The notes under the pieces were generated by a model. It ran no database searches and had not been told where the DNA came from. It saw only the letters and a list, made by a program, of their open reading frames with translations. From a virus: a stretch of DNA of 37,959 nt. Location: the IMG/VR virus record IMGVR_UViG_3300046692_000110; one strand, 5' to 3'. Positions 1,713 to 37,959 of this stretch are shown one piece after another. Each line of letters opens with the position of its first letter. Within the stretch, counting starts at the first letter, position 1. The position numbers and the translations under genes were made by a program.

Positions 1713-3441
1713 TCCTAGCTCGATTCAGTGGGATGACGCGCCACAGGCTCCGCAGATCGATCCTTCCGGCATCACGTGGGATGACGCGCAGCCAGCAGCA
1801 GCGATGATGCCGGCTGCCGCTGATCCAGTTCCACCAATGGCTGTCCAGATGCCGGCGCACCAAGCTGGCCGCATGGGTACTTTACTTGATCGGCTGCCTG
1901 CCAATGCCGGAAAAGAGCTCATGGGCGATCTTGGGAACTTGGTGGCCGGTGCGGGGCGCGGGGCCAGTTCAATTGGCGCAACGCTCATGGCTCCCTACGA
2001 TATCGTCAAGGATGCCATGGCCGGCAAGGGCATGACGTTGGAGTCGAACCGTCAGCGCCGAGCGGCTGTAGACGAGATGATGTTTGCACTGGGTGCCAAT
2101 CCAGAATCGACGGCCTATAAAGGCGGCAAGCTCGGGACTGAAATCCTCGGTACGGCCGGCATGGGTGGTGCATTGGCCAACACCGCGCGCGCACTGCCTG
2201 GGGCGGCCAAGATAGAGCCATTGATTGAATCAATTGGCTCTGGTGGCTTCCGTGTAGGAGGCCTGATGGGGCTTCCAGCTTTGGCGACTCGAGGTGTTGG
2301 CGGCGCCATCACTGGCGGCGCATCGGCTGGCATTGTTAACCCGGAAGACGCGGGGCTTGGTGCAATGGTCGGCGGCGCTATCCCTGGCGCCATGTCCATC
2401 GCTGGCAACTCGGCTCGGGGTATCGGTCGGGCGCTGCGCGGCGGCGAGATCTCCCCGGAAGTCGGCATGCTGGCGAAAAAGGCACAGGATCTCGGCATTA
2501 GCGTTCCTGCCGATCGCCTCGTCAACAGCAAGCCCATGAACGCTTTGGCCGCCTCGCTTGAATACATGCCTTTCAGTGGCCGGACCGCCACCGTCGACAA
2601 GATGCAGAGCCAGCTCAATCGCGCTGTGTCACGCACCTTCGGCCAAGACTCTGACAATGTCACCATGGCCTTACGCAAGGCTCAAGGCGACCTCGGCAGC
2701 AAGTTCGACACCGTATTGCAAAACAACACGGTCAAGGTAGACCCGACATTTACTCAGGAGTTGGCAGATCACGCCCAGCGCGCCACAAGTGAGCTGGAAA
2801 GCGGGCAGGCCAACATTATCCTGAAACAGATCGAAGAGATCGCCGCTAAGGCCCCAAACGGCCAGATCGATGGGCAAGCCGCGTACAACATAAAGAAGAC
2901 CCTCGATCGTATCGGCCAGCGCAACAGTCCTGAAGCCTGGTATGCCGGCGACCTGAAAAAGTCATTAATGGGGGCACTCAATCGGTCACTTAAACCAGAG
3001 GATGCCGCCGAGTTCGCGAAGGTCCGTCAGCAGTACGGGACCATGCTCGATCTGAAAAAGATGGCGCAGAACGGCGCCGATGGGGATATCTCCATCGCCC
3101 GTCTGGCCAACATGAAGAACATCGGCAACCCAGAGTTGCAGGATCTGGCCGACATTAGTGCGCAGTTCCTGAAATCACGCGAAAGCCCGCATGGTGCCAT
3201 GCAGAGGCTTGTTCTTGGCGGGCTTGGTGCTGCTGGCGCAGGGACTGGCGCTGTGTCTCCACTGCTGTTTGGTGGTGCCGTGGCGGCAGGGCGAGGGGCG
3301 AATGCGGCCCTCAATAGCAATGCGCTACGAGACGTGCTCCTACGGGCTCCAAGTCAGGGCGGCGGCTTGCTGTCCATTGGCGCGGAAAAAGCCAACAAAG
3401 TGCTTCCTTTATTGGCGCCGCAGCTACTCAACGGCCAGTGA
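1702..3441 (+). CDS. Large virion or internal protein, 579 aa
   Basis: It overlaps the upstream stop and is Gly/Ala-rich with hydrophobic stretches. It is the last gene before a strong terminator and the fibre gene. Confidence 0.6.
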   Translation: MAIDPSSIQWDDAPQAPQIDPSGITWDDAQPAAAMMPAAADPVPPMAVQMPAHQAGRMGTLLDRLPANAGKELMGDLGNLVAGAGRGASSIGATLMAPYDIVKDAMAGKGMTLESNRQRRAAVDEMMFALGANPESTAYKGGKLGTEILGTAGMGGALANTARALPGAAKIEPLIESIGSGGFRVGGLMGLPALATRGVGGAITGGASAGIVNPEDAGLGAMVGGAIPGAMSIAGNSARGIGRALRGGEISPEVGMLAKKAQDLGISVPADRLVNSKPMNALAASLEYMPFSGRTATVDKMQSQLNRAVSRTFGQDSDNVTMALRKAQGDLGSKFDTVLQNNTVKVDPTFTQELADHAQRATSELESGQANIILKQIEEIAAKAPNGQIDGQAAYNIKKTLDRIGQRNSPEAWYAGDLKKSLMGALNRSLKPEDAAEFAKVRQQYGTMLDLKKMAQNGADGDISIARLANMKNIGNPELQDLADISAQFLKSRESPHGAMQRLVLGGLGAAGAGTGAVSPLLFGGAVAAGRGANAALNSNALRDVLLRAPSQGGGLLSIGAEKANKVLPLLAPQLLNGQ

Positions 3442-4405: not shown

Positions 4406-4942
4406 ATGGGCAGGTATGCATTGATCGAAGAAGCCACGCACCTAGTTACAGGGGTGGTCATGTGGGACGGAACCGTCGAATCTGGTTGGGCTCCGCCTGA
4501 GGGGTTCCTTGCAATTGAATTACCAGAAGACAGTACCGTTGGCTTTGGCTGGTCGTACGTAAACGGTGTGTTTGTTGCGCCTCCAGAGCCAGAAGTACCA
4601 CCGCCAACCTATGCCGAAATTCTCGCCGCTCAAAGCTCAAAGCTAGTCGGGTTCAAACAGCTCGCCGAGGCCCAGAAGGCTGCACTCACCAAGCGCATCG
4701 CCATCCTTCAGGACTCCATGGACTATGTCGGCGTCGAGGGTATGGAAGAGTTTGCGGCAACACCCGAAGAACAGGCGGAGTTCGTCCTGCGCAAAGCCCA
4801 ATACACCAGGTGGAAGAACTACGCAATCTTACTGGGGAGGGTGACTACCCAAGCAGGCTGGCCAACCACAGTGACATGGCCAGTCCAGCCAAGTGACGGC
4901 ATGGATCTCACCGTGTCCTCGCTGGCACCGCCAACTGCATAG
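4406..4942 (+). CDS. Hypothetical protein, possible tail fibre assembly or chaperone protein
   Basis: The ATG at 4406 follows the fibre stop. The functional suggestion rests on position only. Confidence 0.5.
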   Translation: MGRYALIEEATHLVTGVVMWDGTVESGWAPPEGFLAIELPEDSTVGFGWSYVNGVFVAPPEPEVPPPTYAEILAAQSSKLVGFKQLAEAQKAALTKRIAILQDSMDYVGVEGMEEFAATPEEQAEFVLRKAQYTRWKNYAILLGRVTTQAGWPTTVTWPVQPSDGMDLTVSSLAPPTA

Positions 4943-10773: not shown

Positions 10774-10812
10774 AGGGCCTCCCGGGAGTGGGTGAGGGTG
10801 AAGTTGGTGGGG

Positions 10813-11532
10813 TTATGCGGCGTCAGTCGTCATCGATCGAGAGGATGGTGAATGCTGTTGCTGCCACTCTTGGGTCTTGCCCGTTGCCAATGGCGCGGTT
10901 CCGGTCCATCCGATCGGCCATCCCATGAGGTTTTCCCAAAAATCCGGGTTCACATACAGCTTCCCGATTGGCGTTCCGCGCAATTTGTTCTGACTGCCGC
11001 CGACCTCCTGGAAAGTCCCCCCCCATCTGCTTGAGCCATGGCATGGAGTCGGCCACGATCCAGCAACGGGAGCGGGTGTGGGCGGCGCCAACATGGTTTG
11101 ATCCCAGCACTCCCCATCGTGCAGAGAACCCCATGTCGGCCAGGTCTCCGAGGACTGTTCCGAGCCCTCGATGAGTGAGAGCTGACGAGTTTTCCACGAA
11201 CGCGAATCGCGGTCGTACTTCGCCAATGATCCTTGCCATTTCCCGCCATAGTCCGCTCGACTCACCCTCGATGCCGGCCTTTTGTCCTGCCTGGGAAATG
11301 TCGGTGCAGGGGAAGCCGCCAGAAACAACGTCAACAGTTCCGCTCCAGGGGCGTCCGTCAAAGGTACAAACATCATCCCAAATGGGGAATGGTGGAAGGT
11401 GTCCTTCATTTTGGCGCTGCATGAGTCTCCTGGAGCAGAAGGAATTGATTTCCACTGCGCAGACTGTTCGCCATCCAAGGAGCTTTCCAGCAAGTATCCC
11501 GCCACCAGCGCCTGCGAAAAGTGCCAGCTCAT
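10813..11532 (-). CDS. Full-length overlapping ORF in the +1 frame of the methyltransferase (frame B, 239 aa), coding status unresolved
   Basis: No stop for 239 codons. It contains SWKTRQLSL, ETWPTWGSLHDGECW, WPTP and NPDFWENLMGWPIGWT. Confidence 0.35.
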   Translation of the reverse strand: MSWHFSQALVAGYLLESSLDGEQSAQWKSIPSAPGDSCSAKMKDTFHHSPFGMMFVPLTDAPGAELLTLFLAASPAPTFPRQDKRPASRVSRADYGGKWQGSLAKYDRDSRSWKTRQLSLIEGSEQSSETWPTWGSLHDGECWDQTMLAPPTPAPVAGSWPTPCHGSSRWGGTFQEVGGSQNKLRGTPIGKLYVNPDFWENLMGWPIGWTGTAPLATGKTQEWQQQHSPSSRSMTTDAA

Positions 11533-11536
11533 TCAT
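10823..11536 (-). CDS. DNA (cytosine-5)-methyltransferase, compact phage type (frame A)
   Basis: Ordered motifs are FAGAGGG (I), GFPCTDIS (IV), FVENS (VI), AAHTRSRCWIVA (VIII) and EPGFLGKPHGMADRMDRNRAIGNGQDP (IX/X). Confidence 0.85.
   Translation of the reverse strand: MNELALFAGAGGGILAGKLLGWRTVCAVEINSFCSRRLMQRQNEGHLPPFPIWDDVCTFDGRPWSGTVDVVSGGFPCTDISQAGQKAGIEGESSGLWREMARIIGEVRPRFAFVENSSALTHRGLGTVLGDLADMGFSARWGVLGSNHVGAAHTRSRCWIVADSMPWLKQMGGDFPGGRRQSEQIARNANREAVCEPGFLGKPHGMADRMDRNRAIGNGQDPRVAATAFTILSIDDD
11017..11024 (-). repeat. G8 homopolymer (C8 on the + strand) inside the methyltransferase locus
   Basis: Counted directly: gtCCCCCCCCatc. It lies between motif VIII and the C-terminal motifs of both frames. 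Confidence 0.9.
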
Positions 11537-11667
11537 TGGAACTCCTGCGTTGGTAAGTTTTGGTCATCGCGCCGTTGACCGTGTTGCCGCGCTTCAGCAC
11601 GACATTGGCCAGCTTCTCGCGGTCTTTCTCGCTGTGGCTGGCCTGACTGAGCAGGCCGAAGTAGCTG

Positions 11668-12114
11668 TTAGGCAGCCTTCTTCGGCTTTGGGCTGGCTTT
11701 GAGCGGAGTGGTCAACGCCTTCTCGACGCTCCAGCCAAGCCGCAGGCGCATGCTCAGTGCGTTGGCGGTCATGCCCACCTCTGCCGCCCAGTCCGCTACG
11801 TTTTTCGTGATGCCGCCATGCTCAAGCATCACGCAGTGTGTACGGTTCTTGTTCTGCGCGGCCTGGGTAACCCATCGGCAATTGCCGGGCTCGTAGCCTT
11901 TGGCGTTCTCGATGCGGTCCAGGGTCATAGCGCGATCAGGGCATTCCCCCATGTCGTCCCGGAAGTTTGCGAAGTAATGCCAGCGCTCACAGACCTTTAC
12001 GCCGAGCGCGCCGTAATACTTGTAGTTGCCGCAGGTGGGCGTATTGCAGCGCTGCATCATCGACTTCCAGCGGGCATAAGTCAGCGTGCCGCAGCCGCCA
12101 TGTTTGATTCGCAT
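11668..12114 (-). CDS. HNH/AP2-like homing-endonuclease-type protein
   Basis: YARWKSMMQRC...YYGALGVKVCERW..F.NF..DMG..P....TLDRIENAKGYEPGNCRWVTQAAQNKN is the typical stand-alone phage HNH pattern. GGAGAA precedes the ATG at 12114. Confidence 0.7.
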   Translation of the reverse strand: MRIKHGGCGTLTYARWKSMMQRCNTPTCGNYKYYGALGVKVCERWHYFANFRDDMGECPDRAMTLDRIENAKGYEPGNCRWVTQAAQNKNRTHCVMLEHGGITKNVADWAAEVGMTANALSMRLRLGWSVEKALTTPLKASPKPKKAA

Positions 12115-12326
12115 GTCGTTCTCCAATGCAGCAAGATCAGGTGTGGGCTCTTGTCCCGAGTCGAGTTAGCCCGGGCAATCAACATCAGCACGTCGATGCA
12201 CTCATCAATAACGCGCTTCCCGAGAGACTGCTTGAGATCTCGGGGAATGTTGCGGGTGAGATTCGTGGCCATCTGTAGCAGGCCGAGCGAACTTTTGTAG
12301 ATACTCAAATCCGTGTGCATTGACAT
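12081..12326 (-). pseudogene. Avd-like four-helix-bundle protein (DGR accessory type), apparently truncated after about 65 aa
   Basis: DLSIYKSSLGLLQMATNLTRNIPRDLKQSLGKRVIDECIDVLMLIARANSTRDKS fits the Avd / 23S-IVS four-helix-bundle pattern (IY.k...l, iPk..k..LG.ri, l.li..AN). The tail runs into the HNH gene and loses the pattern. Confidence 0.55.
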
Positions 12327-12347
12327 CGGCTTGCTCTCCAAGAGCAA

Positions 12348-12365
12348 CCGGCCGCAAGCGGCCGG
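12348..12365 (-). other. GC-rich hairpin with a 4-nt loop between the first variable gene and the avd-like gene
   Basis: CCGGCCG-CAAG-CGGCCGG is a perfect 7-bp stem. Confidence 0.7.
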
Positions 12366-12379
12366 ATTGAATAAATGAA

Positions 12380-13000
12380 TTAATCAATAAGCGTGCTGCG
12401 GACGGGGCGGACGCGGAGCTCGAGGTCCTTGCCGCTGAGGCTCTGACTGCCATCATCGAAGTTCATGTAGAATGCGCTGTAGGCGGAGCGCTGCGTTGAA
12501 GACCAGTAGGCGCGCGGCTTGAAGGCTTCGGGCCCGCCAGTTTGGAAGGCGGGCAGCGTGGTTTGAGCCGGTGAATCTTCGGTGTGCAGCAGGCCGACAG
12601 GCTCGCTGTTCGGGTTGTCACCACTGCGGGCGTACTGCCAGTTTTCATCGGTGGTCGGTTTAAAATGCCGATACTGCAGCTCCTGCACATCACGCGCCGG
12701 GATCGCCCAGTCAGTGAATCCGCCAATGTCCAGGTCCAGCACCTGCTGCGCCAGTTCGCTACCCGCTGCCGCCATCGCTTCAGTGTTCGCCCGACTGTTG
12801 GTGAAGCTGTCGGCGCCTTCGATCTTATCGCCGTACTCGCCCCAGGCACCGACCAGTTCATGCGCGGCACCTGCAGTGATGTTCAAGTAGCGCTTGCCGG
12901 TTTCCGGATCACGGGTGATACCGCTGAAGAACCCGCCGCCGAATGGTTGGCCGATTTCCGGAATGGTCATTGCGGGAGTTACTTGGGCTGTTGCGGTCAT
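12380..13000 (-). CDS. DUF1566 / Lcl C-terminal (C-type-lectin-fold)-like protein, paralogue 1, with a DGR-type variable C-terminus
   Basis: AGGAAAG precedes the ATG at 13000. The C-terminus is YWSSTQRSAYSAFYMNFDDGSQSLSGKDLELRVRPVR. Confidence 0.8.
   Translation of the reverse strand: MTATAQVTPAMTIPEIGQPFGGGFFSGITRDPETGKRYLNITAGAAHELVGAWGEYGDKIEGADSFTNSRANTEAMAAAGSELAQQVLDLDIGGFTDWAIPARDVQELQYRHFKPTTDENWQYARSGDNPNSEPVGLLHTEDSPAQTTLPAFQTGGPEAFKPRAYWSSTQRSAYSAFYMNFDDGSQSLSGKDLELRVRPVRSTLID
12396..12495 (-). repeat. Variable-region-like 100-bp block, copy 1
   Basis: It aligns without gaps with 13091..13190 and 16967..17066. 79 of 100 columns are invariant. Confidence 0.85.
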
Positions 13001-13024
13001 GGTCTTTCCTCTTTCCGAAGGCAG

Positions 13025-13046
13025 CAAAAAAGGCGCTGATGCGCCC
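13025..13046 (-). terminator. Hairpin with a 4-nt loop plus a T-run between paralogues 2 and 1
   Basis: On the minus strand: GGCGC-ATCA-GCGCC followed by T6. Confidence 0.55.
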
Positions 13047-13077: not shown

Positions 13078-13680
13078 TTAAATAAAGAATCTGCGGACGG
13101 GGCGGACGCGGAGCTCGTGGTGCTTGCCGTAGTCGCCCTGACGGCCACCACCGAAGCCCACGTAGAATGCGCCGTAGGCGGAGCGCTGCGAGCTCGACCA
13201 GTACCAGGTGTCTTTCGCGAATAACTCCGGCGCATTCACCCAGCAGAGGTACAGCTCGGCGCAGGCAGGCAGGTAGAAATCAGCGTGGCCATCGGCGGAA
13301 TACGCCGATGCAGCCTTGGCCGCAGGGTGATCCCCCTCGGTCTTCAGGGCTTCAGTGTTCGCCACCCCGTCAGTTTTGCTGACGGCCGCTGACGCCTTAT
13401 CGCGTCCGCCCCATTTGTGATCACCGACGTCTTCCTTGGCGATGATCAGGTAGTGCGCTGGGACAGCGCCGCGCGCTGCTACCAGCCCGCCGTTGAAACC
13501 CCCTTGTCCAGGCCATTCAGCGCCGAGTTCGGGTATATCCGTAGGCCCTACCGGTTGGACGTTGGCGGCGGGCGGAAGCACATGGGCAAACACACTGGCC
13601 ATTGCCAGCTTGGCCAACGATGAGGCTGGCATCTTGATCGTGGTTTCGCCATGTTTAAGAGTGATCATTTCGGCTTTCAT
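13078..13680 (-). CDS. DUF1566-like protein, paralogue 2, with a DGR-type variable C-terminus
   Basis: The C-terminus is WYWSSSQRSAYGAFYVGFGGGRQGDYGKHHELRVRPVR. The internal DGHADFYLPA motif is shared with paralogue 3. Confidence 0.8.
   Translation of the reverse strand: MKAEMITLKHGETTIKMPASSLAKLAMASVFAHVLPPAANVQPVGPTDIPELGAEWPGQGGFNGGLVAARGAVPAHYLIIAKEDVGDHKWGGRDKASAAVSKTDGVANTEALKTEGDHPAAKAASAYSADGHADFYLPACAELYLCWVNAPELFAKDTWYWSSSQRSAYGAFYVGFGGGRQGDYGKHHELRVRPVRRFFI
13091..13190 (-). repeat. Variable-region-like 100-bp block, copy 2
   Basis: See copy 1 (12396..12495). Confidence 0.85.
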
Positions 13681-16953: not shown

Positions 16954-17544
16954 TCAAATAGGCAATCTGCGGACGGGGCGGACGCGGCGCTCGCTGAGCT
17001 TGCCGAAGTTGCCCTGATTGCCACCATCGAAGACCATGAAGAACGCGAAGTAGGCGGAGCGCTGCGTGCTGCTCCAGTGCCATTCCTTCGCAAACAACTC
17101 AGACACATTCGCCTCGGCCAGTTGCAGCTCTCGCCGGGCTGGCAGGTAGAAGTCGGCGTGACCGTCAGCCTCGTACTCAGCGCAGGCCGTGGCGGCCGGG
17201 TGATCTTCGTCTTCGATCAGTGCGCGAGTGTTTGCAGCGCCATCAGAAGCGCTACCAGCGCCTTTCACCTCAGTCCCGTAGCTGCCCCACTCGAATTTTC
17301 CGAGGTCCTCAGTAGCCACGATCAGGTAGTAATCAGACTGGCCGTCCACGCCGCGCATCACTCCGGCATTCACACCGCCTTGGCCTTCCCAGTAAGAGCC
17401 GATCGCAGGGATGCCCGCGTTCGCCGCAGGTGCCTTCACTTGGTTGGCGCCGAGCACGAAGTTCGCAAACTGAAGAACCAGCGCCTTGTCCGGGCTGCTG
17501 ATCGTTGATTCGCCGCAGGTGAGGGTGGTCAGTTGATTCGTCAT
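16954..17544 (-). CDS. DUF1566-like protein, paralogue 3, with a DGR-type variable C-terminus
   Basis: AAGGACA precedes the ATG at 17544. The C-terminus is WHWSSTQRSAYFAFFMVFDGGNQGNFGKLSERRVRPVR. Confidence 0.8.
   Translation of the reverse strand: MTNQLTTLTCGESTISSPDKALVLQFANFVLGANQVKAPAANAGIPAIGSYWEGQGGVNAGVMRGVDGQSDYYLIVATEDLGKFEWGSYGTEVKGAGSASDGAANTRALIEDEDHPAATACAEYEADGHADFYLPARRELQLAEANVSELFAKEWHWSSTQRSAYFAFFMVFDGGNQGNFGKLSERRVRPVRRLPI
16967..17066 (-). repeat. Variable-region-like 100-bp block, copy 3
   Basis: See copy 1 (12396..12495). Confidence 0.85.
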
Positions 17545-17789
17545 GTTGGTGTCCTTGTCGGGGTTGTTCGTGGCTTTCGAATGCCTCCCGGGGCTTGAGA
17601 GGCATTTGTAAAGCCAGATGGCCAGCCTGAAACAGCAGGAAGCCATCTGATATCCGGTCGCTCTCTACTGGAGGCAGCGACTGGGTGTTGCGTTAGCGGT
17701 GAGGTGATGCAGGGGGCCGCGTTGCGCGGTGTGGACTCATCCGCATCCCGCTGCGCACTCGGTGAATGCGCAGAAGCGATACTTGCTGA

Positions 17790-37783: not shown

Positions 37784-37959
37784 TGCTCCCACTATTAGCT
37801 ATCCCGATTGTTGCTGGTGCCGTCATTGGTGCATTTTCGGATAAGAAAAAACCACTGCGCGGCGCCGCCTTGGGTGCAGCGGCTGGCGCTACCGGTGGCG
37901 GGTTGCTGGGCGTTGGTGCGGGAGCGGCGGGAGCAGGTGCTGCTGGAGCAGCAGGTGCT
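37783..37959 (+). CDS. N-terminal part of an Ala/Gly-rich membrane-anchored virion protein (continues at base 128 after circularisation, 183 aa in total)
   Basis: The ATG overlaps the stop of the upstream gene (TAATG). The N-terminus MLPLLAIPIVAGAVIGAF is hydrophobic. The frame continues into 2..502. Confidence 0.7.
   Translation, partial: MLPLLAIPIVAGAVIGAFSDKKKPLRGAALGAAAGATGGGLLGVGAGAAGAGAAGAAGA
37833..37959. repeat. Terminal overlap, exact copy of 1..127
   Basis: Same as the 1..127 repeat feature. Confidence 0.95.

Follow-up and report, generated by a model that had tools for sequence, protein, structure and literature searches.

What has become of a diversity-generating retroelement (DGR) when its target genes are still in place but another gene stands where its core should be? 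The virus record IMGVR_UViG_3300046692_000110 raises this question (37,959 nucleotides; this whole stretch is called the window, and coordinates are window positions). All relevant genes lie on the minus strand. Here a DGR-type target gene with its variable region (VR), paralogue 1 of three Lcl_C/DUF1566 genes, is followed by a short open reading frame (ORF) resembling the accessory gene avd and then by an HNH-type gene, at the place of the template repeat (TR) and the reverse transcriptase (RT). An earlier reading of the same DNA (the original prediction) had offered two explanations, either that a mobile HNH/methyltransferase module had decapitated the cassette and left three frozen VRs, or that TR and RT are supplied in trans. 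The junctions, the intact relatives and the Avd matches described below make decapitation leaving three frozen VRs the best-supported reading. A small cassette has replaced the DGR core, and it is likely that this cassette is a homing-type selfish gene spread by recombination and that the VRs have been frozen since.

The truncated avd gene

The ORF behind paralogue 1 starts with an ATG at 12326, 53 nt past 12380 (a distance of 54 bp had been given before), is preceded by the ribosome-binding site (RBS) GGAGAG and runs to a stop codon at 12081. Its first 65 or so residues had been described as Avd-like, and profile searches agreed with this, giving matches to PHROG 3206 "Avd protein of DGR" (E = 5e-14; ORF residues 6–70 against profile positions 8–74 of 154), to NCBIfam DivGenRetAVD, NF033474 (E = 6e-5; residues 16–70 against positions 3–57 of 104) and to Pfam bAvd, PF22296 (E = 0.029; profile positions 10–58 of 107). 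All these matches are confined to the first half of each profile. The scores stay below the family thresholds, with 15.3 bits in Pfam (cut-off 40) and 23.3 bits in NCBIfam (cut-off 80), as expected since the ORF is half a protein.

When the 118-aa Avd of the related locus L002 was used in tblastn, its residues 1–66 aligned to 12326–12129 with 79% identity (E = 7e-34), in agreement with the profiles. This 5' part is 97.4% identical at the nucleotide level to the closest relatives, L005 and L018, and many Pseudomonas species encode the closest database homologues of the ORF, PF22296 "four helix bundle" proteins with a length of 118 aa. The homology ends at residue 66, so that the complete four-helix bundle (~118 aa) is absent from the ORF, and its last 15 codons (12128–12084) are cassette sequence read out of frame. 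Judged by this likeness, which is far above chance, the ORF is a true Avd orthologue of which the 5' half alone is left; the half gene is non-functional.

Intact DGRs in related phages

The original prediction had pointed to related phages as the place to look for an intact avd-TR-RT at this position, and such phages exist; instead of a full-length unrelated protein and no RT in any lineage, the relatives carry the RT. Scanning IMG/VR with paralogue 1 yielded 69 loci, 59 of them with full-length avd and RT, while the remainder were cut by contig ends (6), had a shortened RT match (1) or were without the core (3). In the closest relatives, L005 and L018, the DGR cassette is intact. A distant search with blastn against deposited phage records returned the Pseudomonas phages Cruim01, SC_8_H2H8_2017 and Haboob, with the order target, target, avd (118 aa), RT-15 RNA/TR and RT (370–386 aa), and with 9–17 A-site and 0–1 non-A differences between TR and VR. 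By these features their DGRs are typical and apparently active; Cruim01 and Haboob are isolated phages, and the Cruim01 paper makes no mention of the DGR. Intact DGRs of the same family are also widespread in Pseudomonas genomes.

The RT-15 RNA (RF03018) spans the region from the 3' end of avd to the start of the TR (5186–5378 in L001, 1664–1854 in L005) and scores 178–188 bits in the intact relatives when run against Rfam. None of the 59 intact loci has a close homologue of the HNH-like gene of the window within 6 kb; in L018 a 45%-identical relative is located upstream.

Junctions of the cassette and loss of the core

Alignment with the intact relatives showed homology from 13680 to 12129, that is to avd codon 66, and then again from 11669 to 11552. 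The 459 bp in between (12128–11670) have no homology in the intact relatives compared. Approximately 1402 bp of L005 are thereby exchanged for 459 bp in the window and the lost ~1.4 kb comprises avd codons 67–118, the RT-15 RNA, the TR and RT codons 1–344. The insertion boundaries, left to be defined by the original prediction, are in this way placed to within a few bases (12129/12128 and 11670/11669).

Directly abutting the TAA stop of the HNH-like gene is a remnant of the RT, which had been overlooked in the first reading of the sequence. It consists of 118 bp reading NSYFGLLSQASHSEKDR..., corresponds to the last 42 RT codons (345–386, from NSYFGLL), has no start codon of its own, and its stop codon overlaps the ATG of the following methyltransferase gene (ATGAATGA). 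With blastn the remnant is 85% identical to L002 and 89% to L005. The 386-aa RT of a relative has its sole tblastn match in the window at 11702–11544, and neither tblastn with the full RT nor a motif scan revealed any other RT in the window. An RT recognisable by its YxDD motif had been reported missing, and this was borne out: open frames of 150 codons or more hold just three [YF]xDD motifs, none of them in an RT context. Likewise, the TR of a relative matches (blastn) just the three gene-terminal VRs, in line with the earlier observation that no copy of the VR blocks occurs outside the three genes, and the RT-15 RNA, present ahead of the TR in intact relatives, was not found in the window by an Rfam scan. 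Without RT gene and TR, the window locus is not a functional DGR.

The flanks of the cassette are not equally conserved. On the left, from the end of VR1 into avd, there is one mismatch to L005/L018 in ~325 nt, but the last ~37 nt before the junction contain ~8 mismatches. On the right, near-identity begins at the junction itself, with 2 mismatches in the first 84 nt. The arrangement is present in an independent Logan assembly (L004), where 2362 bp over both junctions are 100% identical to the window. Exact-protein look-ups of the window genes returned one identical 2.4-kb contig only, and none for the neighbouring 219-aa protein.

The variable regions

The TR of L005 and L018, identical in these two loci, was used as a proxy for the lost TR of the phage itself. 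Compared with this TR, VR1 differs at 12 of 31 A positions and at none of 69 non-A positions, VR2 at 18/31 and 0/69, and VR3 at 17/31 and 1/69. Among the three VRs, variation is seen in 20 of 32 TR-A columns, in 2 of 14 T columns and in none of the 55 C/G columns. Because the differences are confined to adenines (0–1 of 69 elsewhere), the three VRs are regarded as products of a TR of the L005/L018 type, with almost no drift since then as far as this proxy can tell.

VR1 ends in a GC-rich block CGTCCGCCCCGTCCGCAG resembling an initiation of mutagenic homing (IMH) site, and this block is shared without change by the VRs of the window and by the relatives' own TRs and VRs. At 29 nt after VR1 a 7-bp GC stem with a 4-nt loop was identified (CCGGCCG-CTTG-CGGCCGG). 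DGR targeting requires a hairpin located 4–34 bp after the VR (Guo et al. 2011, PMC3240598), and in the Bordetella phage IMH and hairpin suffice to make a target (PMC3240598). The VR1 structure is the expected target-recognition hairpin/cruciform, retained in the window; its loop differs from the GRNA consensus, and less stable hairpins follow VR2 and VR3.

Concerning the target genes, Pfam Lcl_C matches were obtained for paralogue 1 (E = 6e-8), paralogue 2 (E = 3e-5) and paralogue 3 (E = 2e-4, together with phrog_4245 at E = 8e-36); the gene for paralogue 3 is missing in L018. The targets, of ~200 aa and with no obvious signal peptide when inspected by eye, are situated in an early/recombination operon rather than in a tail module, with YqaJ, ERF/RecT and a SutA-RBD-like gene as operon neighbours. 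This DGR class, with Lcl_C/DUF1566 targets in an early operon, is common in Pseudomonas prophages and little described; no description of it was found in the literature searched.

The HNH-like protein

The protein encoded by the cassette, here called HNH-A, matches phrog_3377 "HNH endonuclease" with E = 1.5e-47. No match to the Pfam HNH models was found for HNH-A or for 36 of its homologues, and single-sequence and profile searches against the sequences of solved structures gave none for HNH-A. An AlphaFold2 model, built with homologues from protein databases, has a mean pLDDT (predicted local distance difference test) of 86.8 and shows strands at residues 63–67 and 79–83 followed by a helix at 84–90, a beta-beta-alpha arrangement, and a helical C-terminal domain resembling a helix-turn-helix. 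When the model was run through Foldseek no significant match appeared, the top one being the HNH enzyme PacI (E = 0.5, probability 0.33). The Pfam, structure-sequence and Foldseek searches, all non-significant, did not place HNH-A in a curated HNH family.

The family shares the motif (S/T)(I/L)DRIDNxGxYEPGNCRWATxxEQxxN, in which D66, R67, N78 and Q87 are invariant and N90 nearly so. R67 stands where the first catalytic His of HNH enzymes is expected. The HNH label of the original prediction is based on the PHROG names and the predicted beta-beta-alpha core, with no significant match in Pfam, the solved structures or Foldseek and an Arg at the place of the first His. The protein is named HNH-like here and its nuclease activity is an assumption. 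A scan of GTDB genomes and JGI metagenomes with the pattern of the HNH-A 5' end, ATGCGAATCAARCAYGGCGG, gave four chance matches with no protein similarity.

Recurrence of broken DGRs

The arrangement of an 81-aa avd ORF followed by HNH-A was also identified in two IMG/VR loci (L024 and L074), in L161–165 from ENA/Logan, in a Pseudomonas capeferrum prophage (L160; assembly GCA_013523055.1) and in Pseudomonas sp. UMC65 (L171; GCA_014170415.1), and in these carriers an RT remnant follows, except in L024. In the other HNH-A carriers the 5' part of avd is 67–86% identical to the window and the cassette 78–90%; the cassette is more conserved than its flanks. The prophages L160 and L171 share a chromosomal neighbourhood, with the integrase located by genes for MerR, a protein of the Bac_DNA_binding family (HU/IHF-type) and the phenylalanyl-tRNA synthetase beta-subunit.

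All HNH-A homologues examined at 55–93% identity are located in broken DGRs, and an RT 3' remnant follows directly in nearly every case. Those at 55–75% (L075, L076, L077, L172–175 and L176–180) belong to far more distant phages and have the RT C-terminal remnant directly downstream, and upstream of most of them are an Avd gene (whole or truncated, ~36–50% identical) and Lcl_C genes with VR pairs, without any TR. The examined broken DGRs with an HNH-A homologue of at least 55% identity amount to about 13 loci or locus groups, whose Avd is 36–50% identical to that of the window's relatives. The three lineages behind L176–L180 were chosen solely for the length of their sequence, and the association holds in three out of three. 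Most homologues below ~50% are without DGR parts, L089 and L110 (48%) still having them, and L079, with a 52%-identical homologue, has none. The RT codon at which the remnant starts varies, being 288, 292, 321, 325, 328, 329, ~343 or 345, and the remnant is absent in L110 and L089 as it is in L024. In L172 (5447–5749), L178 (4447–4752) and L077 (~4432–4641) it forms an ORF of 69–101 aa, the ATG of which overlaps the HNH-A stop codon (ATGA), and this RT thumb-domain fragment may be expressed.

HNH-A is not the only gene found in place of a DGR core. In L048 and L013 the core is replaced by a bona fide Pfam HNH_3 / His-Me homing-endonuclease gene, and the right junction of L048 is within ~10 nt of that of the window, at the conserved RT motif AGCTACTTCGGCCTGCT. 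The cassettes of two unrelated HNH families thus end within ~10 nt of each other at this motif (NSYFGLL, codon 345), the sites near codon 345 being 11655–11669 in the window and 7189–7200 in L048, with further ones in L074 and L076. The motif may be a hot spot of recombination or cleavage. In L166–170 avd is cut at approximately residue 60 and is followed by an unrelated Cys-rich protein of 208 aa (phrog_13737, function unassigned), which is not an HNH protein.

When comparing L161–163 with L164, 100% identity was found over ~2 kb including the truncated avd and HNH-A, the VRs excepted. Besides differing at 12/32 (VR1) and 19/32 (VR2) TR-adenine positions, these show a 3-nt insertion and a single non-A change. 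Past the HNH stop codon, on its right side, L164 and L161 differ throughout, which indicates that recombination at the edge of the cassette occurs. In L166–168, from three samples, the VRs are identical.

Gene layout and the methyltransferase block

Window bases 1–127 are 100% identical to bases 37833–37959, a 127-nt terminal direct repeat. The assembly, ~37.8 kb in size (unit 37,832 bp), is either circular or terminally redundant, and the phage is temperate and of Pseudomonas type. The features of the locus are collected in Table 1. The HNH-type gene starts at 12114 and the methyltransferase gene comes next, as originally predicted, and the 131-nt spacer between the two ORFs holds the RT remnant.

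Table 1. Features of the DGR remnant and its surroundings in the window.
Feature	Position	Strand	Remarks
Lcl_C/DUF1566 paralogue 3	16954..17646	-	230 aa; 3.9 kb away; VR3 core ~16967–17066
Lcl_C/DUF1566 paralogue 2	13078..13680	-	200 aa; VR2 core ~13091–13190
Lcl_C/DUF1566 paralogue 1	12380..13027	-	215 aa; DGR-proximal target; VR1 core 12396–12495
GC-rich hairpin	12348..12365	not assigned	read from the sequence and DNA fold
Truncated avd	12081..12326	-	81 aa; profile matches, tblastn, junction alignments
Inserted 459-bp cassette	11670..12128	-	RBS GGAGAA and HNH-like gene
HNH-like ORF (HNH-A)	12114..11668	-	148 aa; overlaps the tail of the avd ORF
DGR RT 3' remnant	11552..11669	-	RT codons 345–386; blastn, translation, alignments
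C5 DNA methyltransferase	10823..11536	-	237 aa; Pfam DNA_methylase E = 3.5e-25; phrog_363 E = 8.6e-54

A methyltransferase block of ~770 bp (~10783–11551) is missing in L005 (3041 continues at 3061), and in L018 unrelated DNA is found in its place; in both, the RT stop codon runs almost directly into sequence matching window position 10782. That the methyltransferase was part of the HNH insertion was rejected because the intervening RT remnant matches L005/L018 (the 84 nt with 2 mismatches). Of the HNH/methyltransferase module proposed originally, the HNH part accordingly stands while the methyltransferase lies beyond the RT remnant, and its block is a second, separate indel relative to the closest relatives. 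The last ~35 nt of the remnant, beside this block, are diverged and resemble a second co-conversion-like tract. Two ORFs in different frames cover the methyltransferase region on the minus strand (10813–11536). The 237-aa frame encodes an almost complete C5 methyltransferase; the 239-aa frame, which was picked by an external gene caller, has no Pfam match and hits phrog_1008 "DNA methyltransferase" (E = 2.5e-16) and small unknown PHROGs.

Discussion

The locus is what is left of a DGR of a kind common in temperate Pseudomonas phages and prophages, which normally consists of two tandem Lcl_C/DUF1566 targets with VRs, followed by avd, the RT-15 RNA, the TR and an RT of 386 aa. A cassette of 459 bp has replaced the core of ~1.4 kb, leaving half avd, an RT tail of 42 codons and three VRs that still bear the signature of adenine mutagenesis. 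The following course of events is proposed. The cassette is a putative free-standing, homing-type selfish gene, which may spread among related phages by homologous recombination via the retained avd 5' and RT 3' flanks after its predicted nuclease has, probably, cut the intact DGR core, and each acquisition would turn an active DGR into a dead one. As the window flanks hardly differ from the corresponding DNA of DGR-intact relatives, the acquisition would have been recent, by an L005/L018-like genome from a diverged donor and with a short donor tract on one side. The VRs would now be frozen snapshots unless another DGR works in trans. A single ancient and purely vertical insertion was rejected, the window flanks being closest to DGR-intact genomes.

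Several points speak against this course of events or parts of it. HNH-A is without Pfam HNH, solved-structure or significant Foldseek match, leaving nuclease function and target as predictions, and with an invariant Arg in place of the first catalytic His any DNA cleavage may be non-canonical. The junctions differ between lineages and avd is whole, half or absent, which points to several events or to progressive erosion. General mosaic recombination among phages, without nuclease-driven homing, could also move the allele, and the divergent tract at the left junction, suggestive of co-conversion, is a single observation.

The second explanation of the original prediction needs a closer look, namely that the DGR was decapitated in cis but that its VRs are still diversified in trans by the intact DGR of a co-resident prophage or a co-infecting phage, which would supply Avd, RT and TR-RNA. 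The window VRs have kept the IMH-like block, and VR1 its hairpin; avd-TR-brt of the Bordetella phage works from a plasmid (PMC5758913); and possible donors exist in the same-family DGRs so widespread in Pseudomonas genomes. L161–163 and L164, differing almost only at TR-adenine positions of VR1 and VR2, look like such rewriting, but are equally explained by an HNH allele that homed or recombined into clonal siblings differing in their VRs. Moreover, the only other copy of the window, L004, is identical including VR1, the VRs of L166–168 do not differ between three samples, and the non-A change in VR3 would have been overwritten by a TR acting in trans. Taken together we find continued diversification in trans unlikely, and the wider idea that the HNH-A clade deletes DGR cores and that the orphan VRs are rewritten by co-resident prophage DGRs as a community-level function is likewise doubtful.

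Ordinary decay, in which a one-off illegitimate deletion/insertion in a dispensable DGR was followed by mosaic shuffling among lambdoid phages and the protein is not an active endonuclease, draws on a large survey in which stops or truncations had inactivated more than half of the candidate DGRs (PMC5758913), on the loss of the core in L166–170 to a gene unrelated to HNH and on the Arg for His exchange together with the non-significant HNH searches. It is difficult to reconcile with ~13 loci or locus groups in which every examined HNH-A homologue of at least 55% sits in a DGR wreck, with a second, bona fide HNH_3 family replacing the core likewise, with a cassette more conserved than its flanks and with window flanks matching intact relatives almost perfectly, and is considered quite improbable. 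The retention of the RT remnant beside HNH-A in nearly all lineages, and its form as an ORF with ATGA overlap in L172, L178 and L077, could instead mean that HNH-A and the RT C-terminal fragment are a selected module, either a weapon against the DGRs of competitors or a two-gene unit exapted from the RT thumb. This is very improbable, since the remnant of the window and its close relatives has 42 codons only and no start codon, and L024, L110 and L089 have no remnant at all; a simpler reason for its retention would be that it provides the homology arm on the downstream side and that in the window it carries the RBS and the start-codon overlap of the next gene. An origin of the junctions as assembly or chimera artefact might be suspected in a metagenome-type assembly whose ends overlap by 127 nt, but is effectively refuted by the independent Logan assembly, by the genomes of two isolates, P. 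capeferrum and Pseudomonas sp. UMC65, and by several metagenome contigs sharing the architecture. Replacement of the core by a homing-type cassette, with frozen VRs, is therefore the reading adopted here.

DGRs are usually viewed as beneficial diversifiers, and that they are often inactivated has been put down to background decay. The locus described here gives a concrete and recurrent route of inactivation, in which endonuclease-family genes of two unrelated HNH-type families replace the TR-RT core. If HNH-A is a true homing element, it would be a selfish gene parasitising a retroelement and would explain why a single phage population segregates for intact and dead alleles of the DGR. Orphan VRs with intact target signals also offer a natural "recipient-only" substrate for the question of trans action between prophages.

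Compared with known systems, the intact relatives resemble the DGR of Bordetella phage BPP-1 (mtd-avd-TR-brt) in the order of target with VR, avd, TR and RT, and also in the adenine-only TR-VR differences, the AAC-rich TR, the GC-rich 3' block of the VR and the hairpin downstream (PMC3240598). Unlike the Mtd tail fibre of BPP-1, targets of the window type are small Lcl_C/DUF1566 proteins of an early/recombination operon and number two to three; in the relatives an RT-15 RNA precedes the TR, and the window has lost TR, RT and half of avd. With the cellular DGRs of Legionella and Treponema, which have targets of the DUF1566 class (category "d") and non-adjacent or remote targets (PMC5758913), it shares the VR in a C-type-lectin-like C-terminus and the use of one TR for several VRs, one of them 3.9 kb away in the window, but it is phage-borne, located in an early operon, without lipoprotein or signal sequence as judged by eye, and has no TR left.

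The cassette is best compared with free-standing HNH homing genes such as mobE of phage T4 (PMC2790892). Like these it is a small nuclease-family gene with its own RBS and a sporadic distribution, which some close relatives have at a given site and others lack, and with recombinant, co-conversion-like flanks; such a presence/absence polymorphism with recombinant flanks holds for HNH-A when L005/L018 are compared with the window. Homing genes usually target conserved genes of replication or nucleotide metabolism and the host gene survives, whereas the window cassette kills the retroelement, and in HNH-A, unlike in the mobE-type genes, the nuclease is putative and the canonical first His is an Arg. 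No paper tying HNH endonuclease genes to the loss of DGRs was found in the literature searched, and the DGR papers among it do not use the term "HNH endonuclease". Inactivation of a DGR by truncation, finally, is shared with the degenerate DGRs of Wu et al. 2018 (PMC5758913), and a dead DGR as such is of a known kind. What differs from those cases is that the cause can be defined here, an endonuclease-family gene having precisely replaced the core, and that the same gene clade recurs in the wrecks of many lineages, so that the new element is a defined and recurrent mechanism of loss together with an apparent specialisation of one clade on DGR cores.

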